Assembly: GCA_035457825.1 (NCBI GenBank)
Contig: DATIAY010000122.1
Span: 9,147 to 73,146 of the forward strand
Source: Candidatus Methylomirabilota bacterium
Lineage (GTDB): Bacteria; Methylomirabilota; Methylomirabilia; Rokubacteriales; CSP1-6
Direction of reading: 5' to 3'
Length of the DNA stretch: 64,000 nt
The notes below the pieces were generated by a model, which did not search any database, had not been told where the DNA came from, and saw nothing but the letters and a program-made list of their open reading frames with translations. This document shows positions 8,977-28,581 of the stretch, in pieces. Position 1 is the stretch's first letter. Each line of letters starts with the position of its first letter. Position numbers and translations under genes: made by a program.

Positions 8977-10573
8977 CGTGCCCCTGCGCGCGCCCCGCCG
9001 CTGGCACGGCGTCTGGCCGGCGCATCTGCCGTTGACGCTGGACTATCCGCGCGTGCCCGCCTGGTGGCTGCTCGAGCGCAACCTGGCGCGCTTTGCCGAC
9101 CGGGTGGCGCTCCGCGAGCTCGATCCCGAGACCCTGGCCGAAGGACGGACGCTGACCTACCAGGCGCTCTGGCGGGCCGCGCGCGGGGCGGCCACCGGAC
9201 TGCGGGGCGCCGGCGTCGAGCCGGGTATCCGGGTGGCCTACTGTCTGCCCAACGGGGCCGACCTCGTGATTGGCTACTACGCGACGTGGATCGCCGGCGG
9301 CGTGGTGGTGCCGGCCAACCCGGGCGCGCGCGAAGCCGAGCTCGTCCAGCAGCTCGGTGACGCCGACGTCGCGCTCGTGGTCGGAGCGTCGGGCAGCGTG
9401 GCCCAGGCGGCGGCGAGCCGGCTCGGGGTCCGGTTCATGGACGTTGCGAGCTTTCGCCGCCTGGCCGAGCTGTCCCCCGCAGAGCCGGTGTCCGGCACCC
9501 CCGAGGACGACGTGGCCGTGCTCCTCTATACCGGCGGGACGACGGGGACGCCGAAGGGCGCGATGCTCAGCCACCGCAACCTGGTGGTCAACACGATCCA
9601 GTTCGCCGAGTGGTACACCTTCGCTCCCGGCGCGGAAACCGCGGTGTGCGCGCTGCCGCTCTACCACTCGGGCGGGATGTCGGGGGCGATGAATGTCCCG
9701 CTCTACGCGGGAGCCACCTGTCTCGTGCTGGCCCGCTTCAGCGCGGCGGCGGTGGCCCGCGCCATCACCCGCTACCGGGCCACCCGCCTCTTCGGGGTGC
9801 CCACGATGTTCATCGCGCTGCTCAACGACGAGGACGGCCGGCGGGCCGACTACTCGGCGCTGCGCGCCTGCCGCACCAACGCCGCGCCGCTGCCGCCGGC
9901 GGTGAAGGCGGCGTTCGACGCGCTGGTGGGGCGCGAGGTCCTGATCGAGGGGTACGGGCTGACCGAGACGAGCCCGCTGACGCACGCCAATCCCATCGGC
10001 CGCGCCAAGGCGGGCTCGATCGGCGTGCCCTTGCCCGACACCGACGCGCGGATCGTCGACGTGGATCGGGGCGTGGATGTGGCGGCCGGGGAGGCCGGCG
10101 AGCTGCTGGTCTCTGGGCCCCAGGTGATGCTCGGGTACTGGAGACGGCCGGCGGAAACGGCTCAGGCGCTGCAGGACGGCTGGCTCCACACCGGCGACAT
10201 TGCCCGCATGGATGACGAGGGGTATTTTGTCATCGTCGATCGCAGCAAGGACCTGATCAACACCGCCGGCTTCAAGGTCTGGCCCCGCGAAGTGGAAGAG
10301 ACGCTCTACCTGCACCCGGCGGTGAAAATGGCGGCCGTGGTCGGGGTGCCTGACGATTACCGGGGCGAGGCCGTCAAGGCCTACGTCGTACTCCGGGACG
10401 GAGCCGGGACGGCCCCGAGTGCCGAGGCGATCATCGAGTTCTGCCGGCAACGCCTCACCCCCTACAAGGCGCCGCGACTGGTCGAGTTCCGGACGGAGTT
10501 GCCCATGACGACCACCGGCAAGCTGCTCCGCCGTGAGCTGCGCCGCGAGGTCTCGCTGAGAGGAGAGCCATGA
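8954..10573 (+). CDS. AMP-dependent acyl-CoA synthetase/ligase (long-chain-fatty-acid-CoA ligase-like)
   Basis: Contains LLYTGGTTGTPKGA, GYGLTETSP, GWLHTGDIARMDDEGYF and a C-terminal TGKLLRRELR. TTG start at 8954; GTG at 8978 is an alternative. Confidence 0.85.
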   Translation: MPPSPPPDVPLRAPRRWHGVWPAHLPLTLDYPRVPAWWLLERNLARFADRVALRELDPETLAEGRTLTYQALWRAARGAATGLRGAGVEPGIRVAYCLPNGADLVIGYYATWIAGGVVVPANPGAREAELVQQLGDADVALVVGASGSVAQAAASRLGVRFMDVASFRRLAELSPAEPVSGTPEDDVAVLLYTGGTTGTPKGAMLSHRNLVVNTIQFAEWYTFAPGAETAVCALPLYHSGGMSGAMNVPLYAGATCLVLARFSAAAVARAITRYRATRLFGVPTMFIALLNDEDGRRADYSALRACRTNAAPLPPAVKAAFDALVGREVLIEGYGLTETSPLTHANPIGRAKAGSIGVPLPDTDARIVDVDRGVDVAAGEAGELLVSGPQVMLGYWRRPAETAQALQDGWLHTGDIARMDDEGYFVIVDRSKDLINTAGFKVWPREVEETLYLHPAVKMAAVVGVPDDYRGEAVKAYVVLRDGAGTAPSAEAIIEFCRQRLTPYKAPRLVEFRTELPMTTTGKLLRRELRREVSLRGEP

Positions 10574-11544
10574 CGACACGCCTGCGTGCTCCCATCATCC
10601 TCGTGGCCACAGCGTTGCTGCTGGCCGGCCTGATGCGGGTTGAGGCTGGCGCCCAGGAGCGCTTCCCCAGCCGGCCCATCGACTTCATCGTCCCCTGGGG
10701 CACCGGTGGCGGGGCCGACGCGATGGCTCGTCAGCTGGGCGCGCTCGCCCAGCCCCTGCTCGGCACGGCCTTGCCCGTCTCCAATGTCCCCGGCGCCTCC
10801 GGCAACACGGGGCTGGCCCAGCTTTTCACGGGCAAGCCCGATGGCTACACGGTCGCCGTGTACATCCAGGACACGCTGATGACCATCCCCATGGGGCTCG
10901 CCCGCCACAAGGTCGAGGACCTGGACTGGATCACGCGGACCCAGGTCGCCGACTCCTTCCTCTTCGTCAAGGCCGACGGGCCGTTCAAGACGATCCAGGA
11001 GCTGCTCAAGCACGCGCAGGCCAACCCCGGCAAGCTGCGAGTGGCGGCCACCGGCTTCGGCAGCGTGGACGACGTCACCGTGCGGTATCTCGAGAAGAAG
11101 GGCTACAAGCTGACGACGGTGCCGTACCCCAAGCCGGGCGAGCGCTACGCGGCCACGCTGGGCGGCCACGCCGAGGTGCTCTATGAGCAGGCTGGTGACG
11201 TGCTGCAGTACCTCAAGGCCGGGCAGCTGAAGCCGCTGGTGATCTTCGCCGAGAAGCGCCACCCCGCGTTCGCGGAGGTGCCGACGTCCAAAGAGCTGGG
11301 CCTGGACATCACGCTGCCGCAGTTCCGTGGCGTGGTGGCCCGGAAAGGGACGCCCGCCGATCGCGTGACGGCGCTGGCCGCGGCCTTCCGCACGGTCATG
11401 GACACGCCCCAGTGGAAGAAGTTCGCCGACGAGTGGTACATGAGCCCGGAGAGCTATCAGGGACCCGAGCAGTTCACCCGCTGGGTGAGCGGTGAGGTGG
11501 CGACTCTGGAGCAGCTCGTGAAGGAGTTCGGTCTCCGCAAGTAG
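10570..11544 (+). CDS. tctC: Tripartite tricarboxylate transporter substrate-binding protein (Bug/TctC family)
   Basis: Signal peptide plus FPSRPIDFIVPWGTGGGADAMAR.., characteristic of Bug/TctC. Confidence 0.85.
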   Translation: MTTRLRAPIILVATALLLAGLMRVEAGAQERFPSRPIDFIVPWGTGGGADAMARQLGALAQPLLGTALPVSNVPGASGNTGLAQLFTGKPDGYTVAVYIQDTLMTIPMGLARHKVEDLDWITRTQVADSFLFVKADGPFKTIQELLKHAQANPGKLRVAATGFGSVDDVTVRYLEKKGYKLTTVPYPKPGERYAATLGGHAEVLYEQAGDVLQYLKAGQLKPLVIFAEKRHPAFAEVPTSKELGLDITLPQFRGVVARKGTPADRVTALAAAFRTVMDTPQWKKFADEWYMSPESYQGPEQFTRWVSGEVATLEQLVKEFGLRK

Positions 11545-11546
11545 TC

Positions 11547-12053
11547 ATGACCCGCCTGGCGCCGGCCCTGGCGCCCCTCGCCGGCCTCGTGCTCGCGCTC
11601 GGGCTGCTGGCCGCCACGCGCGGGCTCGACGATCTCGCGCGCGAGGGCCAGCTCGGCCCCGGCTTCTGGCCGCGGCTGGTGCTGGTGGGACTCGCGACCG
11701 TGTGCGCGCTGCGCGTCGTCGTGGCGTGGCGTGGCGCGTGGGCCCACCGGGTTGCCGACCCCGATGCGGCGCCGCTGGCCCGAGGGCGACTGGCGATCGC
11801 CGTGGGCCTGATCCTGCTCTATGTGATCGCGGTTCCGGTCCTGGGCTTCCCTCTCGCGACTGCCGGCTTCATCGCCGCGTTCATGATCGTGGCCGGCGCC
11901 CGGCAGGCGAGGGGCGTGGCCGCGGCGGCGGTGGGCGGCACCATCGGCTTGCTCTACCTGTTCGTCAGGGTCGTGTACCTGCCGCTGCCCAAGGGCGCCG
12001 GCCCGCTCGAGGCGGTGACGCTGTCACTCTATCGCCTGCTCGGGATCTTTTGA
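11547..12053 (+). CDS. tctB: Tripartite tricarboxylate transporter small membrane subunit TctB
   Basis: 168 aa with four hydrophobic helices (GPGFWPRLV..), positioned between tctC and tctA. Confidence 0.75.
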   Translation: MTRLAPALAPLAGLVLALGLLAATRGLDDLAREGQLGPGFWPRLVLVGLATVCALRVVVAWRGAWAHRVADPDAAPLARGRLAIAVGLILLYVIAVPVLGFPLATAGFIAAFMIVAGARQARGVAAAAVGGTIGLLYLFVRVVYLPLPKGAGPLEAVTLSLYRLLGIF

Positions 12054-12054
12054 G

Positions 12055-13599
12055 GTGGCCGAGAGCCTAGCCTATCTCGGCGTCGGCTTCCAGAACGCCT
12101 TCGCGCCCGTGAACTTCCTCATGGTGGTGCTGGGCCTGGCCATCGGGATCCTCGCCGGCGTGCTGCCAGGCATCACCATGCTGAACTCCATCGTGCTGGT
12201 GCTGCCTTTCACCTATCTCATGGGCATCGTCCCGGCGCTGCTGCTGATGATCGGCATCTACTGCGGCGGGGTGTTCGGGGGCTCCATCACCGCGATCCTC
12301 TTCAACATCCCGGGCGACCCCATGAACGTGCCCACGGCGTGGGAGGGCCACCCGCTCAATCGCCAGGGCCGGGCCCGCTACGCGCTCGGCCTGGCCATCA
12401 TGGCCTCGGCCATCGGGGGGCTCGCCAGCGCGCTCTGCCTGGCGTTCTTCGCTCCGCCCTTCGCCCGGTTCGCGCTCAGCTTCTCGACAGTGGAGTTCTT
12501 CTCCGTGGTCGTGTTCGGGTTGGCCAGTGTCTCGGTGCTCGGGCACGCCTCGGCCACCGGAGCGCTCATCTCGCTGCTGGCCGGGATGTTCCTGGGCACG
12601 GTGGGGACCGAGGCCCAGTACGGCGTCGAGCGCTTCACCTTCGGCGTGCCATTCTTGAGGACGGGCGTGGACTTCGTCACGGTCCTCATCGGGCTCTTCG
12701 CCATCGGCGAGATCCTCGACCAGCTCGCCGGGCCCTCGACCCAGACGGCAGCGGTCACGAAGACCCGGTCGGTGCCTCGGCTGCCGCTGCTCGACCTGTG
12801 GCCGCTCCGGGGGTCGCTGATCCGAGGGACAGCCGTGGGGATCGCGGTGGGAGGACTGGCTGGCGCCGGGGCGACGGTGTCGTCTTTCGTCGCCTACGGC
12901 CTGGAGAAGCAGGTCTCACGCGACCCCGAACGCTTCGGGAAGGGCCACGCCGGCGGGCTGGTGGCCGCCGAGAGCGCCAACAACGGCTCCACGGGCGGGG
13001 CCATGATCCACCTGCTGACGCTCGGCATCCCCGGCAGCGCGGCCACCGCCGTGATGATGGGCGTGTTCCTCATCCACGGTATCCAGCCGGGCCCCTTGCT
13101 CTTCACGCGGCAGCCGGAGCAGGTCTACACGCTGTTCGCCGGCATGATCCTGGCCAACGTGCTCATGATCGGGCTGGGGTTTCTCGCCGCGGTGGTCTTC
13201 GCCGCGCTGATGCGGGTGCCGGCCTCCATCCTCAACACCCTCATCGTAGTCTTCTGCTTCATCGGCGCCTTCGCGCTGCGCAACGACATGGCCGACGTCT
13301 GGCTCACGATGCTCTTCGGCGTGCTGGGCTTCGTCATGCGCCGCTGGGATCTGCCGGTGCCCCCGATGGTCATGGGCATCATCCTGGGCCCGATGGCCGA
13401 GCAGTACTTCCTTACCTCGATGGTGTCCCACGGCAACGATCTGTCGGTGTTCGTCACGCGCCCGGTGAGCGCGGTAGCCCTGGGGTTGGCGGCGGCGGCG
13501 GTCGCGTGGGCGGTGTGGCGGAGCCAACGACAGCCGGTTGGCGAAACTGCCGAAGTGCCGAATCCGACGAAGGGGTCGCCAACCCCAGGTGCGCGTTAA
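12055..13599 (+). CDS. tctA: Tripartite tricarboxylate transporter large permease TctA
   Basis: 514-aa polytopic protein with GVLPGITMLNSIV.. and GIPGSAATAVMMG, typical TctA motifs. Confidence 0.85.
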   Translation: MAESLAYLGVGFQNAFAPVNFLMVVLGLAIGILAGVLPGITMLNSIVLVLPFTYLMGIVPALLLMIGIYCGGVFGGSITAILFNIPGDPMNVPTAWEGHPLNRQGRARYALGLAIMASAIGGLASALCLAFFAPPFARFALSFSTVEFFSVVVFGLASVSVLGHASATGALISLLAGMFLGTVGTEAQYGVERFTFGVPFLRTGVDFVTVLIGLFAIGEILDQLAGPSTQTAAVTKTRSVPRLPLLDLWPLRGSLIRGTAVGIAVGGLAGAGATVSSFVAYGLEKQVSRDPERFGKGHAGGLVAAESANNGSTGGAMIHLLTLGIPGSAATAVMMGVFLIHGIQPGPLLFTRQPEQVYTLFAGMILANVLMIGLGFLAAVVFAALMRVPASILNTLIVVFCFIGAFALRNDMADVWLTMLFGVLGFVMRRWDLPVPPMVMGIILGPMAEQYFLTSMVSHGNDLSVFVTRPVSAVALGLAAAAVAWAVWRSQRQPVGETAEVPNPTKGSPTPGAR

Positions 13600-18386: not shown

Positions 18387-19694
18387 ATGAAACGAGTCAG
18401 GATCGCGATGTGGATCACACTGGCCGGGCTGTTCGCCGCGCTGGCCCCAACTGGGGCCCGCGCCGACGAGCCGTGCCAGTCGCCCTACGTGCAGAAGATC
18501 ACGGGCGAGGAGGAGTTCGTCTACGTCTGGACGCTCGGGGTAGAGGGCATGGGAGACGGCTCCGACAAGCTCGTCACCGTGGATGTCCGCCGCAAGTCGC
18601 CCACCTACGGAAAGGTCATCCACAGTGTCTCCGTCGGCGGGCGCCATGAGGCCCATCACGGCGGGTTCACCGACGACCGGCGCTACTTCTGGACGGGTGG
18701 GCTCGACACCAGCAAGATCTTCATCTTCGACGTCGCCACCGATCCGGCCAAGCCCCGCCTGCACAAGACCATCGACGACTTCGTCAAGGCCTCCGGCGGC
18801 GTGGTGGGACCGCACACCTTCTATGCGCTGCCCGGGCGGATGTTGATTGCCGCCCTGTCCAACGACCGCGATCACGGTGGGCGGACGGGGATGGTCGAGT
18901 ACTCGAACGACGGCAAGTACCTGACGACGCACTGGATGCCGACGGCAACCACCAACGGCGCCAAGGTCGAGAAGGTGGCCGACGGCTACGGCTACGACGT
19001 CCGCGTCCTGCCCCGCAAGAACGTGATGCTGACCTCGTCCTTCACCGGATGGTCCAACTACATGATGGACTTCGGGCAGATGCTCAAGGACCCGGAGGCC
19101 ATGAAGCGGTTCGGCCAGACGGTGGTGGTGTGGGACTTCCATGCCCGCAAGCCCAAGAAGGTGCTGCACGTGCCGGGCTCGCCGCTGGAGATCCGTTTCG
19201 CCACCCAGCCCAACCACAACTACGCCTTCGTCACCACCGCGCTGACGTCGAAGATCTGGCTGGTCTATGAAGACGACAAGGGCGAGTGGCAGGCCAAGCC
19301 CGTCGCCGACATCGGCGACCCCGCCAAGGTCCCGCTGCCCGTGGCCATCACGTTCAGCGTCGACGACAAGACGCTATGGGTCGACTCCTTCATGGACGGC
19401 ACCGTGCGCACCTACGATGTGACGGATCCCCACAAGCCGCGGGAGATCTATTCCAAGCGGATCGGCTCGCAGGTCAACATGGTGTCACAGAGCTGGGACG
19501 GCAAGCGGCTGTACTTCACCAGCTCCGTGCTGGCGCGCTGGGACAAGAAAGGCGCCGACAACGAGCAGTTCTTCAAGGCTTACACCTGGGACGGCAAGGC
19601 CCTGGAGGAGCGCTTCGCCCTCGACTTCACGAAGCTCGGGTTGGGCCGGGCCCACATCATGCGCTTCGGCAGCGCCAGCCTCTACACGAAGTGA
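18387..19694 (+). CDS. mtoX: SBP56-family protein (selenium-binding protein 56 / methanethiol oxidase MtoX-like), periplasmic
   Basis: Signal peptide. TVDVRRKSPTYGKVIH, PLEIRF and WDGKRLYFTSSVLARWDK parallel human SELENBP1 (TVDVDPKSPQYCQVIH, PLEIRF, DGKRLYITTSLYSAWDK). Confidence 0.8.
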   Translation: MKRVRIAMWITLAGLFAALAPTGARADEPCQSPYVQKITGEEEFVYVWTLGVEGMGDGSDKLVTVDVRRKSPTYGKVIHSVSVGGRHEAHHGGFTDDRRYFWTGGLDTSKIFIFDVATDPAKPRLHKTIDDFVKASGGVVGPHTFYALPGRMLIAALSNDRDHGGRTGMVEYSNDGKYLTTHWMPTATTNGAKVEKVADGYGYDVRVLPRKNVMLTSSFTGWSNYMMDFGQMLKDPEAMKRFGQTVVVWDFHARKPKKVLHVPGSPLEIRFATQPNHNYAFVTTALTSKIWLVYEDDKGEWQAKPVADIGDPAKVPLPVAITFSVDDKTLWVDSFMDGTVRTYDVTDPHKPREIYSKRIGSQVNMVSQSWDGKRLYFTSSVLARWDKKGADNEQFFKAYTWDGKALEERFALDFTKLGLGRAHIMRFGSASLYTK

Positions 19695-19704
19695 TGGGGA
19701 AAGA

Positions 19705-20403
19705 ATGATGCGGATTGCCACGCGCGCGGCCCTGGCGCTCCTCGTGGCCGGCCTGCTGGCGCCGGCTGCGTCGGCGCACGGGCCGCGCGGCTCGTCCAAC
19801 TCCACCGGCGCCGATCTGGGATATCCGCGCTTCGACTACCAGCCTCCGGCGCCCGGGACCTACGCGCTGCCGGCCGTCAAGGCGGCCGCCGACGGGCAGG
19901 TGGTGGACGCCACCAGCACCCGGCGCCGCCTGCACGACTTGATGGGCGACCGCATCGTCGTGCTGAGCTTCATCTCGACCCGCTGCAGCGACGCCCAGGG
20001 TTGTCCGCTGGCCACCGCCGTCCTGCACCAGCTCCGGGCCGCCGCGGCCAGCGACCCGGCGCTGGCGCGCCGGCTCCGCCTCGTGACGCTGAGTTTCGAT
20101 CTCGCTCACGACACGCCCACCGTCCTGGCCCGCTTCGTCCCGCCGGCTCGTAACGGGCGGGCGAGTCCCTGGACGGCCGTGGTGCCGACGTCGGAGGGGG
20201 AGCTCTCGTCGATCCTGGCCGCCTATGGCCAGCCGGTCGGGCCTCGGGTCGTGGAGGCGCCGCCCACCCATCTGCTCCGCGTCTACCTGATCGACCGCCA
20301 GCGCGAGATTCGCAACGTGTACGGCCTCGACTTCCTGGACCCCCGCCTGCTGCTCAACGACGTGCGCACGCTGATCCTCGAGGAGCAGGGCCGGCGGCCA
20401 TGA
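19705..20403 (+). CDS. SCO1/SenC-family copper chaperone-like thioredoxin-fold protein
   Basis: Signal peptide, with VVLSFISTRCSDAQGCPLATAVL (a cysteine pair in the SCO position) in a thioredoxin-fold context. Confidence 0.7.
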   Translation: MMRIATRAALALLVAGLLAPAASAHGPRGSSNSTGADLGYPRFDYQPPAPGTYALPAVKAAADGQVVDATSTRRRLHDLMGDRIVVLSFISTRCSDAQGCPLATAVLHQLRAAAASDPALARRLRLVTLSFDLAHDTPTVLARFVPPARNGRASPWTAVVPTSEGELSSILAAYGQPVGPRVVEAPPTHLLRVYLIDRQREIRNVYGLDFLDPRLLLNDVRTLILEEQGRRP

Positions 20404-21605
20404 CCACCGGGCGGCGGGTGATGACAGGGGTGCTGGGGGCGCTGGCTCTGGCCGTGGTGGCTCTGGCCACCGACGCCAGCGAGCAGGCGGGCGACAGCGG
20501 GGCTGACCGGCGGGTGGCCGCGGCCCTCGCCCGCATCGCCACGCCGCCCCTGGGACTGCCACCGGTTCCCGTGCCCGCCGACAACCCGCCGACACCGGCC
20601 AAGGTGGCGCTCGGCCGCAAGCTCTTCTTCGACCGTCGCCTGTCCCACAACGGCACGATGTCGTGCGCGATGTGCCACATCCCCGAGCAGGGCTTCACGA
20701 ACAACGAGCTGGCCCGTCCGGTCGGCATCGAGGGCCGCAGCCTGCGCCGCAACGCGCCGACCCTGCTCAACGTGGCCTACGTCGAGCGGCTCTTCCACGA
20801 CGGGCGGGAGATCGCGCTGGAGACCCAGGTCATCGGTCCCCTGGTCGAGCGCAGCGAGATGGGCAATCCCTCGATCGGCCACGTCATCGCCCGCATCCGC
20901 TCGCTGCCCGACTACGCCGGCCTCTTCGAGCGCGCGTTCGGCGCCAGCCCGAGCCCCGACCGCATCGGCCAGGCCATCGCCAGCTACGAGCGCACGCTGC
21001 TCTCGGGCCGCTCGTCCTTCGACCACTGGTACTACGGCGGTGAGCCCTCCGCGGTCGGGCCCCGGGCGGTGGAGGGGTTCCGCCTGTTCACCGGCAAGGC
21101 CGGCTGCGTGTCCTGTCACACGATCGGGGCCCGTCACGCGCTTTTCAGCGACGGCGCCTTCCACGACACGGGCATCGGCTACTACAACGCCGTCGTCCGC
21201 CCGCGCCAGCGCACGCCGGTGCCGGTGGAGCTGGCCCCCGGGGTCATCGCCCAGCTCCCGCCGGAGGCCGTGGAGAGCGTGGGCGACCCGGAGGCCGCCG
21301 ATCTCGGACGGCACGAGGTGACTCTGGTTCCCGCCGACCTGTGGAAATTTCGGACGCCGACCCTGCGCAACGTGGCCCTGACCGCGCCGTACATGCACGA
21401 CGGCTCGCTGCGCACGCTCCCGGACGTGGTGCGGTTTTACAATCGGGGCGGACAGCCTCACCCGGGCCTCGATCCCCGGCTCCGTCCGCTCGGGCTCACC
21501 GAGACCGAGATGGCCGCGCTGGTGGAGTTTCTCGAAGCCCTCACCGGGACGGATGTGGCGCGCCTCATCGAAGAGGCCTGGACACCGGGGCCGCCGGGAA
21601 ACTGA
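20400..21605 (+). CDS. Di-haem cytochrome c peroxidase / MauG family protein
   Basis: Two CxxCH motifs (CAMCHIPEQGF, CVSCHTIG) and PTLRNVALTAPYMHDGSL. 4-nt overlap with the SCO1-like gene. Confidence 0.85.
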   Translation: MTTGRRVMTGVLGALALAVVALATDASEQAGDSGADRRVAAALARIATPPLGLPPVPVPADNPPTPAKVALGRKLFFDRRLSHNGTMSCAMCHIPEQGFTNNELARPVGIEGRSLRRNAPTLLNVAYVERLFHDGREIALETQVIGPLVERSEMGNPSIGHVIARIRSLPDYAGLFERAFGASPSPDRIGQAIASYERTLLSGRSSFDHWYYGGEPSAVGPRAVEGFRLFTGKAGCVSCHTIGARHALFSDGAFHDTGIGYYNAVVRPRQRTPVPVELAPGVIAQLPPEAVESVGDPEAADLGRHEVTLVPADLWKFRTPTLRNVALTAPYMHDGSLRTLPDVVRFYNRGGQPHPGLDPRLRPLGLTETEMAALVEFLEALTGTDVARLIEEAWTPGPPGN

Positions 21606-21609
21606 ATCC

Positions 21610-22560
21610 CTACTCTTTGAGCGTCTCCATCGCCTGGCGGGCGTACGCGTTGTCCACCAGGTCCTCGTAGCGGTGGCGGCGCTTGATGAACCCGCCGGCG
21701 AGCAGGATCTCTTGCAGATACTCGAATCCCGGCCGCTTGAGGACAGGATGGGTGGCCCACGTGTCCTGAGCGAGGTAGCGCTCGACGGCCCGGCGTCGCA
21801 GGTGGGCCGGGATGTCGGCAAAGTCCGGCCCGATCAGCTCGGCGATCTCGGCGGCGCCGTGCCCGGCGATCCAGCGCTGGGCCCGGTACACGCCGCGGGT
21901 GAAGCGCAGGAGCAGCTCGGGCTGGCGGGCGAGCCGGTCGGGCGTGGCCAGGTACGACGAGAACGGTACCGGGCCCGTGGCCTCTCCCATCGAGGTCACC
22001 AGGTGGGCGGCGCCGCCGGCCACCAGCTGCTCCGTCGTCGGCTGCCCGGCCTCTAGGAATTCGCCGCGGCCACCCTGGAATGCGGCGACGGCGTCGGCGC
22101 CGTGGAGATCGCGGATGAACGTGACCCGGTGGGGGTCGACGCCGTGGCGCCGCAAGACGGTAAGCATGCACTGCCAGGGCGTAGGCGCTCCGGCGAACGA
22201 GATCACGGTGCGGCCCACGAGATCGCGCCAGGTGAAGTCCGGCCGCGGCGTGCGGCTGAGCAGGAAGAAGCCGTTGCGGCTGTTGACCTCGGCGAAGTGG
22301 GGGATCAGCCGACCGCCGCGGTCGGCCACGTCGAGGCTGCGCATGAGCCCGCCCAGGCCGAGCTCGGCCGCGCCCTCGATGACGGCGCGCAGGACATTGG
22401 TGCGGCCGTCGGCGATCACCGGCTCCACGTCCAGCCCCTCGGCGGCGAAGTGCCCGCCGCGGATGGCCACGCTGTGCGGCGCGTAGAAGAGCGACCGGAA
22501 CGGTTGGGCGACCCTCACCTGCATCGGGGCGCCAGTATAAACCACCTCAGGGCTAGTCAC
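21610..22560 (-). CDS. NMT1/THI5-like (nitrate/sulfonate/bicarbonate-type) substrate-binding protein, no signal peptide
   Basis: 316 aa. The GTG start overlaps the upstream stop (GTGA). Periplasmic-binding-protein type 2 pattern (..GLDVEPV..G..N..A...G..D.G.). Confidence 0.6.
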   Translation of the reverse strand: MTSPEVVYTGAPMQVRVAQPFRSLFYAPHSVAIRGGHFAAEGLDVEPVIADGRTNVLRAVIEGAAELGLGGLMRSLDVADRGGRLIPHFAEVNSRNGFFLLSRTPRPDFTWRDLVGRTVISFAGAPTPWQCMLTVLRRHGVDPHRVTFIRDLHGADAVAAFQGGRGEFLEAGQPTTEQLVAGGAAHLVTSMGEATGPVPFSSYLATPDRLARQPELLLRFTRGVYRAQRWIAGHGAAEIAELIGPDFADIPAHLRRRAVERYLAQDTWATHPVLKRPGFEYLQEILLAGGFIKRRHRYEDLVDNAYARQAMETLKE

Positions 22561-23552
22561 TCGATGAGGCGATCCGCGCGCAGCAGGATGCTCGGCGGGA
22601 TCACGAGACCGAGCATCTTGGCGGTCTTCATGTTGATGACCAGCTCGAAGCGCGTGACCTGCTCGACCGGGATGTCGGCGGGCCGGGCGCCCTTGATGAT
22701 CCGGTCCACCAGGCGGGCCGCATGGCGTCCCAGCGCGTGCAGGTTTGCCGCGTAGCTGACGAGGCCGCCCTGCTCGACGTGAAACGAGGCGTGGAGCATC
22801 GTCGGGACAGCCTGTCGCCGCCCAGCCTCGATGATGAAGCCGGGAATGTTCAGCGACAGAAAACGGGGCGAGAGGATGCCATCCACCTCGCTCTTGCGCA
22901 CCCTGCCGAGCGCCACCCGGGCCTCGTCTTGCGTGTGCACGGGCCGCTCGATCAAGCTCAGGCCCAGTCGCCGGGCTGCTTCCCGATACCGCTCCAGCTG
23001 GGAGACGGCGTAGGGGTCGCCGGCGTCGTAGGCAAACAGGACGCGCTTCAGCCCCGAGACAACCTCGCGGAAGATCTCCAGGCGCTTGGGCGCCAGCTCG
23101 ATGTCGAGGTCGGCCACCCCCGTCACGTTGCCGCCCGGCCGGGCAATGCTCTGGACCAGTCCGGTGCCCACCGGATCGCTCCCGCTGATGAACACGATGG
23201 GAACGCGGTCGGTCGCTCGCTGGAGCGCCTTCGCCTCGTTCGCACCCCCGCCCCCGGTGACCAGGATGTCGGCGCCCCGCTCGACGAGCTGGCGCGCCGC
23301 GCGCGGTAGCTCGTCGGCGTCACCCTCGGTGAAGCGCACGCCGATCACGAAGTGCTCGTTCTCGCGATGGCCGAGCTCGACCAGGCCGTCCCGCAGGCCC
23401 ACGATTCCCGGGGTGGGGCCCCAGGATTCCGACAGGGCTCCGATGAGGACCGGCTTCACCCGTTGCTGGGCAGGCGATTCCTGCACCAGTCCCCACGCGA
23501 TCACGATGAGAGCGACTCCGAGTGCCCGACAGGCGTGCAGGTTCCCCTTCAT
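22557..23552 (-). CDS. ABC-transporter substrate-binding protein (ABC_sub_bind/PF04392-like), 331 aa
   Basis: Signal peptide. Contains VKPVLIGALSE.., PIVFISGSDPVGTGLVQSIARPGGNVTGV and FELVINMKTAKMLGLVIPPSILLRADRLIE. ATG 23552 overlaps the upstream stop (ATGA). Confidence 0.75.
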   Translation of the reverse strand: MKGNLHACRALGVALIVIAWGLVQESPAQQRVKPVLIGALSESWGPTPGIVGLRDGLVELGHRENEHFVIGVRFTEGDADELPRAARQLVERGADILVTGGGGANEAKALQRATDRVPIVFISGSDPVGTGLVQSIARPGGNVTGVADLDIELAPKRLEIFREVVSGLKRVLFAYDAGDPYAVSQLERYREAARRLGLSLIERPVHTQDEARVALGRVRKSEVDGILSPRFLSLNIPGFIIEAGRRQAVPTMLHASFHVEQGGLVSYAANLHALGRHAARLVDRIIKGARPADIPVEQVTRFELVINMKTAKMLGLVIPPSILLRADRLIE

Positions 23553-23942
23553 TGCCGCGGCGACCCGGATTGCGGGCCCCGCGCCCGGGACGGGACGGGT
23601 TCGCCGGGTGTAGCGGCCAGCAGGGTCTCGACGATCGTCAGGGCGGTGGGGCTCGCCCATTCGCGGACGCCCACCGCCAGCGCCTCTGCTTGTCCGTCGC
23701 GCCCGATGAGGAACGTGGTGGGCAAGCCGATCACGCCGTATCGGCCCGTGACCGCGCCGTCGGCGTCGAGGACCAACGGGAAGCTCAGGCCCAGGTCACG
23801 GGCGTAACGCCGCCCACCGCCGGGCCCTCGCGCGTGTTGATGCCGACGACCGCCAGCCCACGGGTGCCGAACCGACGATGCAAGGCCTCGAGGGCTGGCA
23901 TCTCCTGGCGGCAATCGACGCACCAGGTCGCCCACGCGGCCA
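23549..23942 (-). pseudogene. TlpA/ResA-like thiol:disulfide oxidoreductase remnant: N-terminally short and frameshifted
   Basis: The frame from ATG 23942 reads MAAWATWCVDCRQEMPALEALHRRFGTRGLAVVGINTREGP.. and stops at 23785. The homologous continuation RRYARDLGLSFPLVLDADGAVTGRYGVIGLPTTFLIGRDGQ is in the other frame (track ORF 23549..24025). The shift lies in the G/C run at about 23800-23830. Confidence 0.6.
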
Positions 23943-24509
23943 TCACTCCTTCCCGATCGCGCGCGCGGCCTCCAGAATGGGCTCGGTCGGGAACACGTCG
24001 GCGACCGTGCCGAGCCAACGGCCACGGATGATGCCGGCCTTGTCGACGAGGAAGAAGGCGCGCTGAGCGGTCGTGCTCGACCACTGCGTGTAGAGGCCGG
24101 CGTAGCTCTTGATCGTCTTGAGATGCGGAAAGTCGCTCAGCAGGGGATAGGGCAGCTTGAGCGAATCGCTGAACGTCTTCTGCGAGAACGGATTATTGGA
24201 GCTGATGCCCAGGATCTGGATGTTCAGCGCCTCGAACTTTCCGTAGTCGGCCTTCCTGGCCGACAGGTTCGCCGCTCACACGGGGGAGAAGTCGGCGCCG
24301 TAGAACTCCAGGAGGACGATCTGCTTGCCGCGGAACTGGCTCAGGCTGATGTTGCCTCCCGTCGTCGCCGGCAGCGTGAAGTCGGGCGCCCGGTCGCCGA
24401 CCTTGGGCTCTGCGGCCGCCGGCCGGAGCCCGATCACGCCCCCCACGGCGAGGAGGACGGCGCTCACCATCACGATGATCGTCCCCATCCGGGTCAGCCC
24501 TGCACTCAT
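23943..24509 (-). CDS. Exported peroxiredoxin (AhpC/TSA-BCP type), 188 aa, with in-frame TGA (24276-24278) at the peroxidatic Cys position; candidate selenoprotein (U78)
   Basis: Read-through of track ORF 24276..24509 gives ..GDRAPDFTLPATTGGNISLSQFRGKQIVLLEFYGADFSPV-U-AANLSARKADYGKFEALNIQILGISSNNPFSQKTFSDSLKLPYPLLSDFP..RAFFLVDKAGIIRGRW..GKE*. The frame has no further stop until 23943. GGAGGA RBS and an N-terminal signal/anchor are present. Confidence 0.8.
24246..24264 (-). promoter_or_regulatory. Candidate bacterial SECIS hairpin for the peroxiredoxin UGA
   Basis: mRNA GUCGGCC-AGGAA-GGCCGAC forms a perfect 7-bp stem starting 11 nt after the UGA. The apical loop begins 18 nt after the UGA and contains GG. 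Confidence 0.55.
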
Positions 24510-24605
24510 GGATCGATCCTCCCCTCATTGTGCCGGACCATCCCTAGGTGGCTTTGACGCGAAGCAGCCAGAGTATACAACCGGTGGGGCGGTCGCACGG
24601 TTCCC

Positions 24606-26096
24606 TCACCGCGTGGACTGCGTCGGTGCTCGGCGCAGGATCGGCCAGACGAGCGCGGCGAAGGTGAGCAGGAGAAAGCCGGCGGCGATCGGCTGGCGCA
24701 GGAAGACCGTGGGGTCGCCACCGCTCAGGGTGAGGGCCAGGCGGAACTGCTCTTCCAGATCGCCCCCCAGGACGAGGCCGATGATCATGGGCACCACCGG
24801 GAAGCCATACCGGTTCAGCAGGTAGCCGACGGCGCCGAAGCCGAGCATGACGGCGCTGTCGAAGAGGGTGTTGCGGAGACCGTACGCGCCGACGACGCAG
24901 AGGACGGCAATGGCCGGCAGGAGCGCGCTCGTGGGCAGCCGGAGCACCTGGACGATGAAGCGTACCGACAGCAGCGCCACCACCAGGGTCATGACGTTGG
25001 CCAGGAGCAGCGCCCAGAAGACCCCGTAGACGAAATCCGGATGCTCCTTGAAGAGCAGCGGCCCGGGAGCCAGCCCCTGGACGATCAGGACCCCGAGCAG
25101 GATCGCGGAGATGGGGTCGCCGGGGATCCCCAGCGTGAGCATGGGGATGAGCGCGCCGCCGGTGACGCCATTGTTGGCGGCCTCGGGAGCGGCGACGCCC
25201 TCGGCGCTGCCCCGGCCGAAGGCCTGGGGCGCGCGGGACACGCGGCGAGCGAGGTCGTAGGCCAGGAACACGGCGATGGGACCGCCGGTGCCGGGGATAG
25301 CGCCGACGCCGGTGCCCACGGCGGAGCCGATCACCATGCTTCGGTTCAGCGCCCCGAGCTCACGCCACGAGGGCAGCAGGCTCGTGAGACCGACGGTGAA
25401 CCTGGGAATGACAGCACCAGCGCCCCCTCGCAGGCCCTCGATGACCTGGGGGATGGCAAAGAGCCCGATGAGCGCAGGAATGAAATGCAGGCCCGCCTGC
25501 AGCTCGACTCGCCCGAACGTGAAGCGAGGCGTGCCCACCATGGGGTCCTGGCCGACGGTGGTGAGGAGCAGGCCGAGGACCCCGGCGATCAGCCCCTTGA
25601 CGAGCGAGCTTCCGGCGAAGGCGGCGATCAGCGTGAGTCCCAGCGTCAGCAGCGCGAACTGCTCGGCCGCCCCGAACTGCAGCGCCACGCGCGCGATCAG
25701 CGGGGCCGAGAGCACGAGGCAGACCAGGCTGAAGATGCCGCCATAGACGGAGGAGATGACCGACACGCCGAGCGCCTTGCCGGCCTCGCCACGGCGGGCC
25801 ATACGGTAGCCGTCGATGGCCGTGGCCGACGCCGAAGGCGTGCCCGGGATGTTGATGAGGATCGCCGAGTAGGAGCCGCCGGTCATGCCGGCGGCGAAGA
25901 GCCCGAGCATGAGGGACATCGCGACGACCGGGGGCAGCCCGAAGGTCAACGGTAGGACCAGCACCATCCCCAGCGAGATCGTGAGGCCGGGGAGCGCGCC
26001 CACGACGAGCCCGAGCAGGACTCCGACGAAGCTCGCCAGCAGGCTCGGCCAGGAGAGCGCCTGGCCCAGGGCCTGCCAGATTGCGGCGTCCGTCAT
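24606..26096 (-). CDS. tctA: Tripartite tricarboxylate transporter large permease TctA (second copy)
   Basis: 496-aa polytopic protein with GALPGLTISLGMV.. and GIPGDPISAILLG. Confidence 0.85.
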   Translation of the reverse strand: MTDAAIWQALGQALSWPSLLASFVGVLLGLVVGALPGLTISLGMVLVLPLTFGLPPVVAMSLMLGLFAAGMTGGSYSAILINIPGTPSASATAIDGYRMARRGEAGKALGVSVISSVYGGIFSLVCLVLSAPLIARVALQFGAAEQFALLTLGLTLIAAFAGSSLVKGLIAGVLGLLLTTVGQDPMVGTPRFTFGRVELQAGLHFIPALIGLFAIPQVIEGLRGGAGAVIPRFTVGLTSLLPSWRELGALNRSMVIGSAVGTGVGAIPGTGGPIAVFLAYDLARRVSRAPQAFGRGSAEGVAAPEAANNGVTGGALIPMLTLGIPGDPISAILLGVLIVQGLAPGPLLFKEHPDFVYGVFWALLLANVMTLVVALLSVRFIVQVLRLPTSALLPAIAVLCVVGAYGLRNTLFDSAVMLGFGAVGYLLNRYGFPVVPMIIGLVLGGDLEEQFRLALTLSGGDPTVFLRQPIAAGFLLLTFAALVWPILRRAPTQSTR

Positions 26097-26109
26097 CGGC
26101 GATGGCGCG

Positions 26110-26550
26110 TCAGAGCCAGGGGCTCCGCGGCAGCGGAACCGCGAACAGCACGGTCAGCACGAGCCAGACCCCGAACGTGAGACCGACGGCGGCGCCGAGA
26201 ATGAACAGCGGCGATCGCGCCCCGCACAGCCACGTCGTGATGCCGACGAAGGGAAGGGTCGCCAGGAAGTAGCCCAGATGGGCCAGGGCCGCGACGTAGA
26301 GGCTGAGCAGCGCCAGCACTCCAGCCGCCTGGGCCCAGCCGGGCGACTGGGCGTGCGCGAAGTCGTCACCGGCGGGCTTGCTCTGGATCAAGAGGGCCAG
26401 GGCCAGCAGTGCGAGGAGCCCGCAAAGCAGGAGGGGCACGAACGCCGACCCCGGCCCCTCGGGAGCGAGCACCGGCAGCCCGCGCGCCAGCCAGGCCCAC
26501 GTCCCGGCCACGGCCAGCACGGCGAGCGCGGCACCGACGCGGGCCGACAC
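26110..26550 (-). CDS. tctB: TctB small membrane subunit (second copy)
   Basis: 146 aa with four helices, positioned between tctC and tctA. Confidence 0.7.
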   Translation of the reverse strand: MSARVGAALAVLAVAGTWAWLARGLPVLAPEGPGSAFVPLLLCGLLALLALALLIQSKPAGDDFAHAQSPGWAQAAGVLALLSLYVAALAHLGYFLATLPFVGITTWLCGARSPLFILGAAVGLTFGVWLVLTVLFAVPLPRSPWL

Positions 26551-26557
26551 GCGGGAC

Positions 26558-27517
26558 CTACTTCTTGAGCCCGGCCTTCTTCACGAGGTCAGCGATGAGC
26601 GCGTTCTGCTCCTCGAGGTACTTCCGGAACGCCGCCGGGCCCTGGACCGCTACGATGTAGCCGCCGTTGGCGCCGGCCTGCTTGAAGGCCTCGTCCTGAG
26701 CGGCTTTCTGGAAGGCCTCGGCGAGCTTGTCGACGACCGCGGCGGGAGTGCCCTTGGGCACGCTGAAGCCGCGGAACAGCTCCATGGCCACCGGCACGCC
26801 GGCCTGGCGGAGCGTGGGCACGCCCGGGAACGCCGGGTCCGCGGCCTCGCTGGGCACGGCGAGGATGCGTACCTCCCCCGCGCGCACGTGGGCGGCGATC
26901 TCCGGCGTGGGCACGCTGATCATCTCCACTTCTCCGCGCAACAAGCTCGGGATGCGCTTGCCGGAGCCGAGCGGCGCGTGGATCACCTTTATGCCGGTCG
27001 CCTCTGTCAGCGCCAGCGCGGCGAAGTGCGTGCCGCTGCCGTGGCCGGCGTTGCCGATGCGGACCTTGCCCGGGTTGGCGCGGGCGTGGGCCAGGAAGTC
27101 CGGGAACGTCTTCCAGGCGGCATCCGCGCGGACCGCCAGCGGCATGGCCTGCGTCGATACACGCGCGACGTGGTCGAGCGCATCCCAGGGGAAATCGAGG
27201 GTGCCGAGGTTCGCGGTGGTGAGCAGCGAGGTGGAGTTCCAGGCCACGGTGTAGCCGTCGGGCGGCGCCGTCTTCACGTGCGTGTAGGCCAGGGCGCCGC
27301 CGGCGCCGGGCTTGTTGATGGGGACGACGGGCACCCCGAGGAGCTTTTCGGCGGCCTTGGCGATGATGCGTCCCTCGATGTCGGCGGAGCCGCCGGCGCC
27401 GAACGGGATGATCAGCTCGATCGGCTTGGCCGGGAAGGTCTGGCCCCAGCCGGCGGGCGCCGAGGCCAGGAGCACGGCGAGCGCGACGGTCGGTCGTATC
27501 ATCGCTGTCCCTCTCAC
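26558..27517 (-). CDS. tctC: Bug/TctC substrate-binding protein (second copy)
   Basis: Signal peptide plus FPAKPIELIIPFGAGGSADIEGR. 4-nt overlap with the upstream ADH gene. Confidence 0.85.
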   Translation of the reverse strand: MRGTAMIRPTVALAVLLASAPAGWGQTFPAKPIELIIPFGAGGSADIEGRIIAKAAEKLLGVPVVPINKPGAGGALAYTHVKTAPPDGYTVAWNSTSLLTTANLGTLDFPWDALDHVARVSTQAMPLAVRADAAWKTFPDFLAHARANPGKVRIGNAGHGSGTHFAALALTEATGIKVIHAPLGSGKRIPSLLRGEVEMISVPTPEIAAHVRAGEVRILAVPSEAADPAFPGVPTLRQAGVPVAMELFRGFSVPKGTPAAVVDKLAEAFQKAAQDEAFKQAGANGGYIVAVQGPAAFRKYLEEQNALIADLVKKAGLKK

Positions 27518-28581
27518 GGGTGGAAGATGACCTTGATGGGATCGCCGATTCGCTTCTCGACGACCTCGAAGCCCCGGTGCACTTCGGTCAGCGGGAAGGT
27601 CTGGCTCACCAGCGGCTTGGCCCGCACGCGACCAGCCGCCAGCAGGGCCAGGGCCCGGCCCACGCTCGTCCCGCCCTCGCCTCGCTCGGTGTAGATCGTC
27701 AGGTTGCGACGCACGGCGTCGGCCACGTCGGCGGTGACGGGGCCGTGGTAGAACCCCACCAGGATGACGCGGCCGCCCGGCTTGGTCATCTTGATCGACT
27801 GGTCGAAGGTGTCGTCACCGCCGGCGCAGTCGATCGTCACGTCGGCGCCGCGGCCCCCGGTGGCCTCCCGCACTGCAGTCACCGGATCCTGCTCGCGGCT
27901 GTTCACGATGACGTCGGCGCCCAGCTCTTTGCCCAGGGCCAGGCGCCCCGGTCGCGTGCCGGTGAGGATCACGCGCACGGCGCCGAGCGCCTTGACGAGC
28001 TGCAGGGCCATCAGCCCGATCGGCCCCGGTCCCAGCACCGCCACCGTCTCGCCGGCGAAGTAGCCGCCGGCCCGCTCCAGCCCGTACAGGGGGCTGCCCG
28101 CGGTCATGACCACGACGGCCTCCTCGAAGGAGACGCTGTCGGGGACGCGGAACAGCGTGTTGACGTGGTTCAACGCATACTCGGCCAGCCCGCCGTTGGT
28201 GGTAAACCCGTTGGCCCGGTGCCCACGCTTCATGTTGCCGAAGTTCAGGCAGGCCGTGTACAGCCCGCGGATGCAGTTCTCGCACCGCCGGCAGCCCATA
28301 TGCGCCTCGACGACCACCCGGTCGCCGACCCGAAACTCGTCCACCGTGCTGCCCACCGCCACCACGTCGCCCGCGTACTCGTGGCCGAAGATGAACTGGC
28401 CGTACGGGGGCATGTGAGGCAGCCCCTGGTGGACGATTTTCAGGTCCGTCCCTCAGACGCCGCAGGCGCGCACGCGAACCAGCACGTCCTCCGGCCCCGG
28501 CTGGGGAACCGGCCGCTCCTGCAGTTCGAAGCGGTGGGGCGCCATCAACACGGTCGCCCGCATGGTCGTGGGAGCGCTCAT
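27514..28581 (-). CDS. Zn-dependent alcohol dehydrogenase (MDR superfamily), 355 aa, with in-frame TGA (28453-28455) at the catalytic-zinc Cys ligand; candidate selenoprotein (U43)
   Basis: Track ORFs 28453..28725 and 27514..28413 are in the same frame, separated by one TGA plus 13 sense codons. The joined sequence reads MSAPTTMRATVL..EDVLVRVRACGV-U-GTDLKIVHQGLPHMPPYGQFIFGHEYAGDVV... It has the structural-Zn motif GCRRCENCIRGLYTAC and the NAD motif VLGPGPIG. A GGAGGA RBS precedes ATG 28581. Confidence 0.8.
28407..28426 (-). promoter_or_regulatory. Candidate SECIS hairpin for the ADH UGA (alternative hairpin at 28431-28451)
   Basis: mRNA GGGGC-UGCCUCACAU-GCCCC has its loop starting 31 nt after the UGA. 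The alternative GGACGG-ACCUGAAAA-UCGUCC starts 2 nt after the UGA. Neither could be scored here. Confidence 0.35.

Follow-up and report, generated by a model that had tools for sequence, protein, structure and literature searches.

A candidate exported selenocysteine peroxiredoxin and its conserved bacterial SECIS hairpin at a Candidatus Methylomirabilota locus

Peroxiredoxins (Prx) with selenocysteine (Sec) have been known since 2001, and to our knowledge they appear in every survey of prokaryotic selenoproteomes. Here we analyse a 64,000-nucleotide stretch of Candidatus Methylomirabilota DNA (GenBank assembly GCA_035457825.1, contig DATIAY010000122.1, positions 9,147 to 73,146; hereafter the window), whose minus strand very probably encodes, at 24509..23943, a further enzyme of this type: a single gene for a 188-residue exported peroxiredoxin of the BCP/PrxQ-AhpE neighbourhood, with one Sec residue encoded by an in-frame UGA that is recoded by a downstream hairpin. 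The known family, called "Prx, T/SxxU", is defined in PMC1794560 and PMC13188914. Its members (PF00578; prototype PrxU of Eubacterium acidaminophilum) have an AhpC/TSA domain in which Sec replaces the peroxidatic cysteine of the motif S/T-x-x-U, abundant Cys homologues, and a bacterial selenocysteine insertion sequence (bSECIS) directly after the UGA. The window gene shares all these features, and the protein belongs to this family and not to PrxU; the first-pass annotation of this DNA, made from the sequence alone, was right that families of Sec-containing peroxiredoxins had already been described. Unlike the PrxU prototype family, the window protein has a signal or anchor peptide, no other Cys, and Gly for the Pro of PxxxTxxU. 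Its clade also differs from the known family in being mostly Sec rather than mostly Cys in the genomes sampled.

Three other systems are close enough for comparison. The minimal SECIS of E. coli fdhF is a stem-loop 11 nt from the UGA, spanning nucleotides 15-31, and its loop contains G23 and U24 (PMC8659212). The window stem-loop also starts 11 nt past the UGA, at nucleotide 15, and has G23 in the loop; unlike that of fdhF, its stem is perfect, without the bulged U17, its loop is AGGAA, and it has no conserved extended lower stem. The best structural matches of the protein are AhpE of M. tuberculosis and archaeal Bcp4/Bcp1. AhpE shares the single redox residue, whereas AhpE and Bcp4/Bcp1 are cytoplasmic and Cys-based and have the canonical Pro. 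In the envelope of Caulobacter crescentus, the pathway ScsB -> TlpA -> PprX has been shown experimentally, PprX being an exported PrxQ-type peroxidase (PMC3322552). There, an exported PrxQ/BCP-type peroxiredoxin is paired with an exported TlpA-like CxxC reductant of the thioredoxin fold, and the window family, with its predicted export signal and the TlpA-like neighbour found in relatives, would be similar. However, PprX is a 2-Cys enzyme with canonical PxxxTxxC and no selenium, whereas the window protein is a 1-Sec enzyme; moreover, the Prx and TlpA-like genes are adjacent in relatives of the window locus, and in the window itself the TlpA-like gene is a remnant.

The first half of the gene is an open reading frame (ORF) of 77 amino acids (24509..24276, minus strand) that ends with the letters LLEFYGADFSPV and is followed by TGA at 24278..24276. 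Translation past this codon gives 110 in-frame codons with no further stop until the TGA at 23945..23943, and the read-through protein contains no Cys residue. The local G+C content is about 70%. Over 6.6 kb the locus shares 91% identity with L004, a contig from a Candidatus Methylomirabilota metagenome-assembled genome (MAG). The first-pass annotation had placed the 77-codon ORF, the TGA and the 110-codon extension exactly there, had drawn the hairpin GUCGGCC-AGGAA-GGCCGAC, starting 11 nt past the UGA with its loop 18 nt past it, and had called the product a 1-Sec protein with no other Cys; the frame and the hairpin, which lies at 24264..24246, were reproduced, and a 1-Sec product is consistent with the sequence.

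The UGA occupies the position of the peroxidatic cysteine. In the best alignment to a solved structure, 2ywn (E 5.6e-21), YPAAFTQVC stands over YGADFSPV followed by the TGA, so that FTQVC lies opposite FSPVU, and the codon aligns with the invariant C78 of 13 Cys homologues. When Cys is placed at the TGA, the Pfam domain AhpC-TSA covers residues 37-162 (6.8e-31; 107.2 bits against a cut-off of 26), and Redoxin is matched at 5.2e-18. The peroxidatic site proposed in the first-pass annotation is thus upheld. A protein search yielded 661 homologues, and the residue at the UGA position was read in the best 120 of them: 92 have Cys, 25 have W, and two are C-terminal pieces of 107 residues (84-85% identity). 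The DNA behind one of the W proteins and both fragments has TGA at that codon (three of the three contigs fetched); the W is therefore an artefact of gene calling and the fragments are post-UGA halves. Sec/Cys pairs, which the first-pass annotation had proposed to look for by alignment to Cys homologues, are abundant (92 Cys and 25 TGA read as W). Public gene calls in general mishandle the family: JGI puts Trp in 25 of the 120 best matches, and other pipelines output separate fragments of 77 and 107 amino acids.

The family was also scanned at the DNA level, with one genome per GTDB species. Among the 80 copies found, 73 have TGA and seven have TGC or TGT at this position. They come from Methylomirabilota/Rokubacteria, Binatia, Deltaproteobacteria/Thermodesulfobacteriota, Burkholderiales, Eisenbacteria and others. 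Metagenome copies, collected in a scan seeded with a Cys-clade profile, have TGA in 20 cases and Cys in 13 (33 in total). An independent assembly, L129, contains the identical 77-residue ORF, the TGA and the beginning of the hairpin, and the 91%-identical L004 has the same TGA. A rough neighbour-joining (NJ)/Fitch reconstruction gives the sampled clade a Sec-containing ancestor and a minimum of six switches. Several genomes (loci L014, L021, L030, L032 and L037) have two or three Sec-Prx paralogues each, 0.6-3.6 kb apart, a local expansion of the family.

The bSECIS model requires an apical loop of 3-9 nt that lies 16-37 nt past the UGA, an upper stem of 4-16 bp and a minimum free energy (MFE) of -7.5 kcal/mol or lower, together with G in the first two loop positions, usually G(G/U) (PMC13188914). 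The window hairpin agrees with the model on every count: its loop has 5 nt, its stem 7 bp, the spacing is 18 nt, the energy is -12.8 kcal/mol, and G occupies loop positions 2-3. When numbered from the U of the UGA, the stem-loop takes up nucleotides 15-33, with G23 and G24 in the apical loop. As the window alone cannot decide whether a TGA followed by such a hairpin is beyond chance, the case rests on comparison. Elsewhere, in genomes and metagenomes, the combination is found again in 79 distinct downstream sequences, all of them Sec forms; each of their hairpins reaches -7.8 kcal/mol or lower, and the loop has GG in 78. In the set of 73 sequences G23 is invariant.

Since the encoded peptide L-S-A-R-K-A-D is itself conserved, nucleotide conservation alone is weak proof of an RNA structure. 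We therefore compared the codons in the hairpin with those in the rest of the same 73 Sec genes. The Arg codon is AGG in 70 of 73 cases, compared with 11% elsewhere in these genes, and the Ser codon is TCG in 54 of 57 (24% elsewhere). GCC is used for the first Ala in 69 of 71 cases and for the second in 54 of 60, and elsewhere for 37% of Ala residues. In 67 distinct sequences 95.1% of cells are paired, with changes on both sides at four of the seven pairs; none of 500 shuffles and no slid register match the observed values. For example, in L001 the loop-closing pair C-G is replaced by U-A through two synonymous changes, and in L021 and L037 a G-C pair has become A-U through Ala-to-Thr and Ala-to-Val substitutions. 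In the 17 distinct Cys sequences, on the other hand, the energy ranges from -12.8 to -0.1 kcal/mol and is weaker than -7.5 in nine, and AGG has become AGA in three. The difference between Sec and Cys hairpins has Mann-Whitney p-values of 1.6e-6 (pairs) and 4e-5 (energy), computed on samples that are not phylogenetically independent. These patterns argue that the hairpin is kept by synonymous codon choice and compensatory changes and decays where Cys replaces the UGA. The bSECIS proposed in the first-pass annotation is thereby supported both by its geometry and by RNA-level selection seen only where the UGA is present. An intrinsic terminator was considered as another role for the hairpin and ruled out, as there is no U-tract 3' of it. 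A scan of 23300..24800 for promoter and terminator consensus sequences found nothing.

Over 100 peroxiredoxins of known structure match the 188-residue product. An AF2 model was made of a Cys homologue with 66% identity (pLDDT 87.8). It shows the Cys at the first turn of helix 75-86 and can be superposed on Bcp4 (3hjp) and AhpE (5c04, 1xxu) with a TM-score of 0.91-0.93 and an rmsd of about 1.5 A at 31-34% identity. No NCBIfam equivalog is reached, the models of PrxU, BCP, Tpx and AhpC all being far below their cut-offs. NF040737 (PrxU) scores 63.2 bits against a cut-off of 270, PRK09437 (BCP/PrxQ) 50.8 against 140, and NF053650 51.2 against 260. The protein is thus related to BCP/PrxQ but lies outside those equivalogs. 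Of the peroxiredoxin catalytic set, Ser75, Sec78 and Arg150 do not vary within the family. Where the motif PxxxT/SxxC has its Pro, the whole family has an invariant Gly (G71), and there is an invariant Pro two residues before Sec; in descriptions of other peroxiredoxins the active-site Pro of PxxxTxxC is called "absolutely" or "highly" conserved (PMC13188914, PMC3322552).

The N-terminus looks like a signal peptide or signal anchor, as the first-pass annotation had suggested. Residues 1-33 have a positive start and a hydrophobic stretch of 20 residues, and end in an AxA-type motif (RPAAA|EP). The Kyte-Doolittle maximum, in a 19-residue frame, is 2.56 at residues 10-28. All homologues have a hydrophobic N-terminus followed by A-x-A-(L)E-V-G, and in the AF2 homologue model this region is a low-confidence helix apart from the domain. 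We infer from these features that the peroxiredoxin is probably exported or anchored in the membrane.

One rival explanation of the internal TGA is a pseudogene or a miscall, that is, a nonsense codon in an ordinary Cys peroxiredoxin, from which a 77-residue stub or nothing is made and next to which the hairpin is incidental. Public gene callers do annotate only fragments, and the adjacent TlpA-like gene has a deletion and a frameshift, so that decay or assembly errors occur locally. However, the same TGA is present in 73 GTDB and 20 metagenome copies, in the independent assembly and in the 91%-identical contig, and mutation would need to strike the exact catalytic codon each time. Also, in comparisons of the window with ten relatives the 59 codons after the UGA have dN/dS of 0.02-0.22, and the upstream part 0.06-0.29. 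Loss of the downstream frame in close relatives, which the first-pass annotation had named as contrary to its proposal, is thus not seen, and the post-UGA half is under purifying selection. A peroxiredoxin split into two polypeptides was ruled out as well: the earliest ATG, GTG or TTG of the post-UGA ORF is codon 93 of 110, so the downstream half cannot be made alone, and the break falls exactly at the catalytic residue. Given the conserved TGA and the selected downstream half, we reject the pseudogene, sequencing-error and split-gene readings, the first two of which together retain hardly any credibility. Decoding of the UGA as another amino acid is also very improbable. It would involve either a lineage-wide reassignment or near-cognate read-through (Trp, Cys or Arg) with the hairpin as a generic stimulator, and could appeal to the 25 database homologues with W at this position and to the lack of Sec machinery in the available sequence, namely the window and the flanks of related loci. 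Reassignment is contradicted by the true stops of the window, since TGA is the commonest of them and ends 28 of the 44 predicted genes, the peroxiredoxin gene included. Trp at the peroxidatic position would abolish catalysis, whereas 92 of the best 120 homologues have Cys there, a classic Sec/Cys pair; besides, the hairpin has the geometry of a SelB-type SECIS to the nucleotide, with G23, and the phylum is reported to be rich in Sec.

A different kind of alternative accepts the selenoprotein with its peroxiredoxin fold and gives it another main job, either as an envelope selenol-thiol oxidoreductase or as a redox sensor acting with its TlpA-like, ABC_sub_bind and histidine-kinase neighbours. 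The family-wide Gly at the "absolutely conserved" Pro position and the low scores against the PrxU, BCP, Tpx and AhpC equivalogs are in its favour, and Caulobacter PrxL sets a precedent as an exported peroxiredoxin-like protein with no detectable peroxidase activity (PMC3322552). The genomic context can be read in the same way. In the flanks of L004-L074 the most recurrent Sec-Prx neighbour is ABC_sub_bind (80 ORFs in 48 loci), often together with genes for a sensor histidine kinase of about 800 amino acids and a response regulator, which hints at a signalling context. Nevertheless, the catalytic set of Ser/Thr, Sec/Cys and Arg is invariant, the homologue model superposes on true peroxidases at 1.5 A, and the PprX-TlpA precedent is a genuine peroxidase pathway (PMC3322552). 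We therefore consider a non-peroxidase role unlikely, and a peroxidase remains our preferred reading of the protein.

A number of observations weigh against a SECIS-directed Sec peroxidase. Three of the 17 distinct Cys forms keep a perfect hairpin and 14 keep AGG, so part of the hairpin conservation is due to inheritance or to protein constraint on L-S-A-R-K-A-D, and none of the Sec-versus-Cys comparisons is independent of phylogeny. RNAfold of a 61-nt stretch is unremarkable at 70% G+C (z = -0.87), fold energy alone being uninformative, and an Rfam scan of the window at gathering thresholds matched no family and no generic bacterial SECIS. Neither the window nor 60 related loci yielded a tRNA-Sec with ARAGORN. 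A Pfam scan of about 40 window genes recognised no SelA, SelB or SelD, and crude motif expressions for these three proteins matched nothing in about 865 kb (the window and the flanks of related loci), the flanks being checked only by ARAGORN and such motifs. The Sec machinery of the source organism is thus assumed from its lineage. The TlpA-like partner gene is broken in the window and absent in L002 and L003. Finally, with Gly for Pro in the active site, peroxidase activity, although likely, is less certain than the fold. As for the Cys forms that keep the hairpin, in the rough tree they are nested among Sec forms, and this fits recent Sec-to-Cys conversions with a fossil SECIS.

Further evidence on Sec decoding comes from a second gene. 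A screen of the window for in-frame TGA codons based only on G+C at third codon positions gave mostly off-frame noise, and a refined version was used; it left the peroxiredoxin and a zinc alcohol dehydrogenase (ADH) of the MDR type. The TGA of the latter, 4 kb from the peroxiredoxin, stands in RACGV-TGA-GTD, where relatives carry a catalytic-zinc Cys, and is also present in L004. At the ADH codon, RNAfold gives no hairpin in clear agreement with the bSECIS model. For the lineage, 63 predicted selenoprotein genes have been reported in one Methylomirabilota MAG (PMC13188914). The SECIS signature, the conserved ADH TGA and this report of a Sec-rich lineage support Sec decoding in the source organism indirectly. 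The statement of the first-pass annotation that the organism decodes UGA as Sec can be kept to that extent, whereas the window itself holds no sel gene and no tRNA-Sec.

A probable mode of action can be outlined from the sequence features. Translation would start at the ATG at 24509, preceded by a Shine-Dalgarno box. At UGA78, SelB.GTP.Sec-tRNA(Sec) bound to the hairpin 24264..24246 would deliver selenocysteine, and the ribosome would read on as far as the stop codon 23945..23943. By its N-terminal signal or anchor the product would be directed to the cytoplasmic membrane, either through it or into it. At this location the Sec78 selenolate, assisted by Ser75 and Arg150, may reduce peroxide and be converted to a selenenic acid. 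Because this peroxiredoxin has no resolving Cys, an external thiol partner would be needed for recycling. A plausible candidate in most relatives that encode Sec is the TlpA-like CxxC dithiol protein of the same operon, in parallel with Caulobacter PprX-TlpA-ScsB. In the source genome, where the partner gene appears to have decayed, either another envelope reductant would be required or the enzyme would be uncoupled.

Table 1. Coordinates of the predicted features in the window
Feature	Coordinates	Strand	Details and evidence
Sec-peroxiredoxin coding sequence	23943..24509	-	188 residues: 77 codons + UGA (Sec78) + 110 codons + TGA stop 23945..23943
In-frame UGA, peroxidatic (CP) position of the S-P-V-U motif	24276..24278	-	alignment to 2ywn and Cys homologues
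Candidate bSECIS core	24246..24264	-	GUCGGCC/GGCCGAC 7-bp stem, loop AGGAA 24257..24253; MFE -12.8 kcal/mol
Candidate signal peptide or signal anchor, residues 1-33	24411..24509	-	MSAGLTRMGTIIVMVSAVLLAVGGVIGLRPAAA then EP; hydropathy and AxA-type motif
Shine-Dalgarno box GGAGG	24518..24522	-	8 nt 5' of ATG 24509; direct sequence reading
TlpA/ResA-like WCxxC thioredoxin-fold remnant	23549..23943	-	three-frame translation; alignment to intact L004-L007 genes
ABC_sub_bind (PF04392) periplasmic binding-protein gene, downstream of Prx	23660..22560	-	
TctC-TctB-TctA transporter genes, upstream of Prx	27517..24609	-	
MDR zinc alcohol dehydrogenase	27514..28581	-	Pfam ADH_N + ADH_zinc_N; in-frame TGA 28453..28455
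SBP56 "56-kDa selenium-binding protein" gene	18387-19691	+	
Gene for a 232-amino-acid protein	19705-20400	+	motif ..STRCSDAQGC..; no Pfam match at 1e-4
Di-haem cytochrome c peroxidase/MauG gene	20400-21602	+	

The TlpA-like remnant is situated between the peroxiredoxin and ABC_sub_bind genes, and its ATG overlaps the stop codon of the former (TGATG). The first-pass annotation had mentioned neither this disrupted neighbour nor the Gly-for-Pro change of the active site. The remnant has a 204-nt deletion between TGGGCG direct repeats, by which the signal peptide and the N-terminal strands are gone, and a 1-nt deletion near 23813 that shifts the frame. This decay could be real or an assembly artefact. 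The Pfam domains AhpC-TSA, Redoxin and Thioredoxin_8 match both the intact gene of L005 and the repaired window remnant. L004-L007 each have an intact copy, and in L002/L003 the gene is missing entirely. Among loci with enough flanking sequence, a TlpA-like WCxxC gene lies directly 3' of the peroxiredoxin in 45 of 77 Sec loci versus one of 12 Cys loci (Fisher p = 0.0013). Neither ScsB nor DsbD nor CcdA was recognised among the window genes scanned with Pfam, no targeted search for them having been made. In L047, on the plus strand about 2100 nt upstream of the Prx UGA, a TlpA-like gene reads FWATW-TGA-DIC, possibly a UxxC selenoprotein form of the partner family.

The novelty of the finding is modest, since the Sec-Prx family is known and Methylomirabilota have already been reported as rich in selenoproteins, and knowledge of Sec decoding itself is unchanged by it. 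Several traits of the clade may nevertheless be undescribed: most members use Sec, Gly stands for Pro in the active site, there is a predicted export signal, a TlpA-like gene is closely coupled to the Prx gene, and the SECIS decays by degrees in Cys derivatives. We tentatively suggest, while regarding the point as doubtful, that these sequences form a separate peroxiredoxin clade, exported, ancestrally and predominantly Sec-containing (73 of 80 with TGA; at least six Sec-to-Cys conversions with fossil SECIS), with the motif GxxxSxxU and a two-gene module with a TlpA-like reductase. If so, a selenium-dependent peroxide or redox-sensing system of the envelope would occur widely among the Methylomirabilota, Binatia and Deltaproteobacteria of soil and groundwater, and would have been systematically overlooked because gene callers split it at the UGA.

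For annotation, ORFs that are called as two or three "fragments" in the window, and likewise in dozens of MAGs, belong to one enzyme, and the W of JGI proteins would be Sec. The nearly invariant SECIS, with its G23-G24 loop and 11-nt spacing, could guide selenoprotein annotation in Methylomirabilota and neighbouring groups. This phylum, whose selenoproteomes were recently reported as the largest among bacteria, gains a predicted envelope selenoenzyme that probably has a recycling partner of the TlpA type. A natural series runs from Sec forms, through Cys forms that seem recent and still bear a fossil SECIS, to old Cys forms, and provides material for the study of Sec/Cys exchange and SECIS decay.

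The remaining observations concern the surroundings of the gene. The tripartite tricarboxylate transporter set TctC-TctB-TctA at 24609..27517 (minus strand) lies immediately upstream of the peroxiredoxin and downstream of the TGA-containing ADH, and a second complete set is found at 10570..13596 on the plus strand. About 3 kb from the peroxiredoxin, at 18387..21602 on the plus strand, three consecutive genes encode SBP56, the 232-amino-acid protein and the MauG-type cytochrome c peroxidase. This row presumably resembles the mtoX-SCO1/senC-mauG methanethiol-oxidase cluster, which we take to be a periplasmic producer of H2O2.

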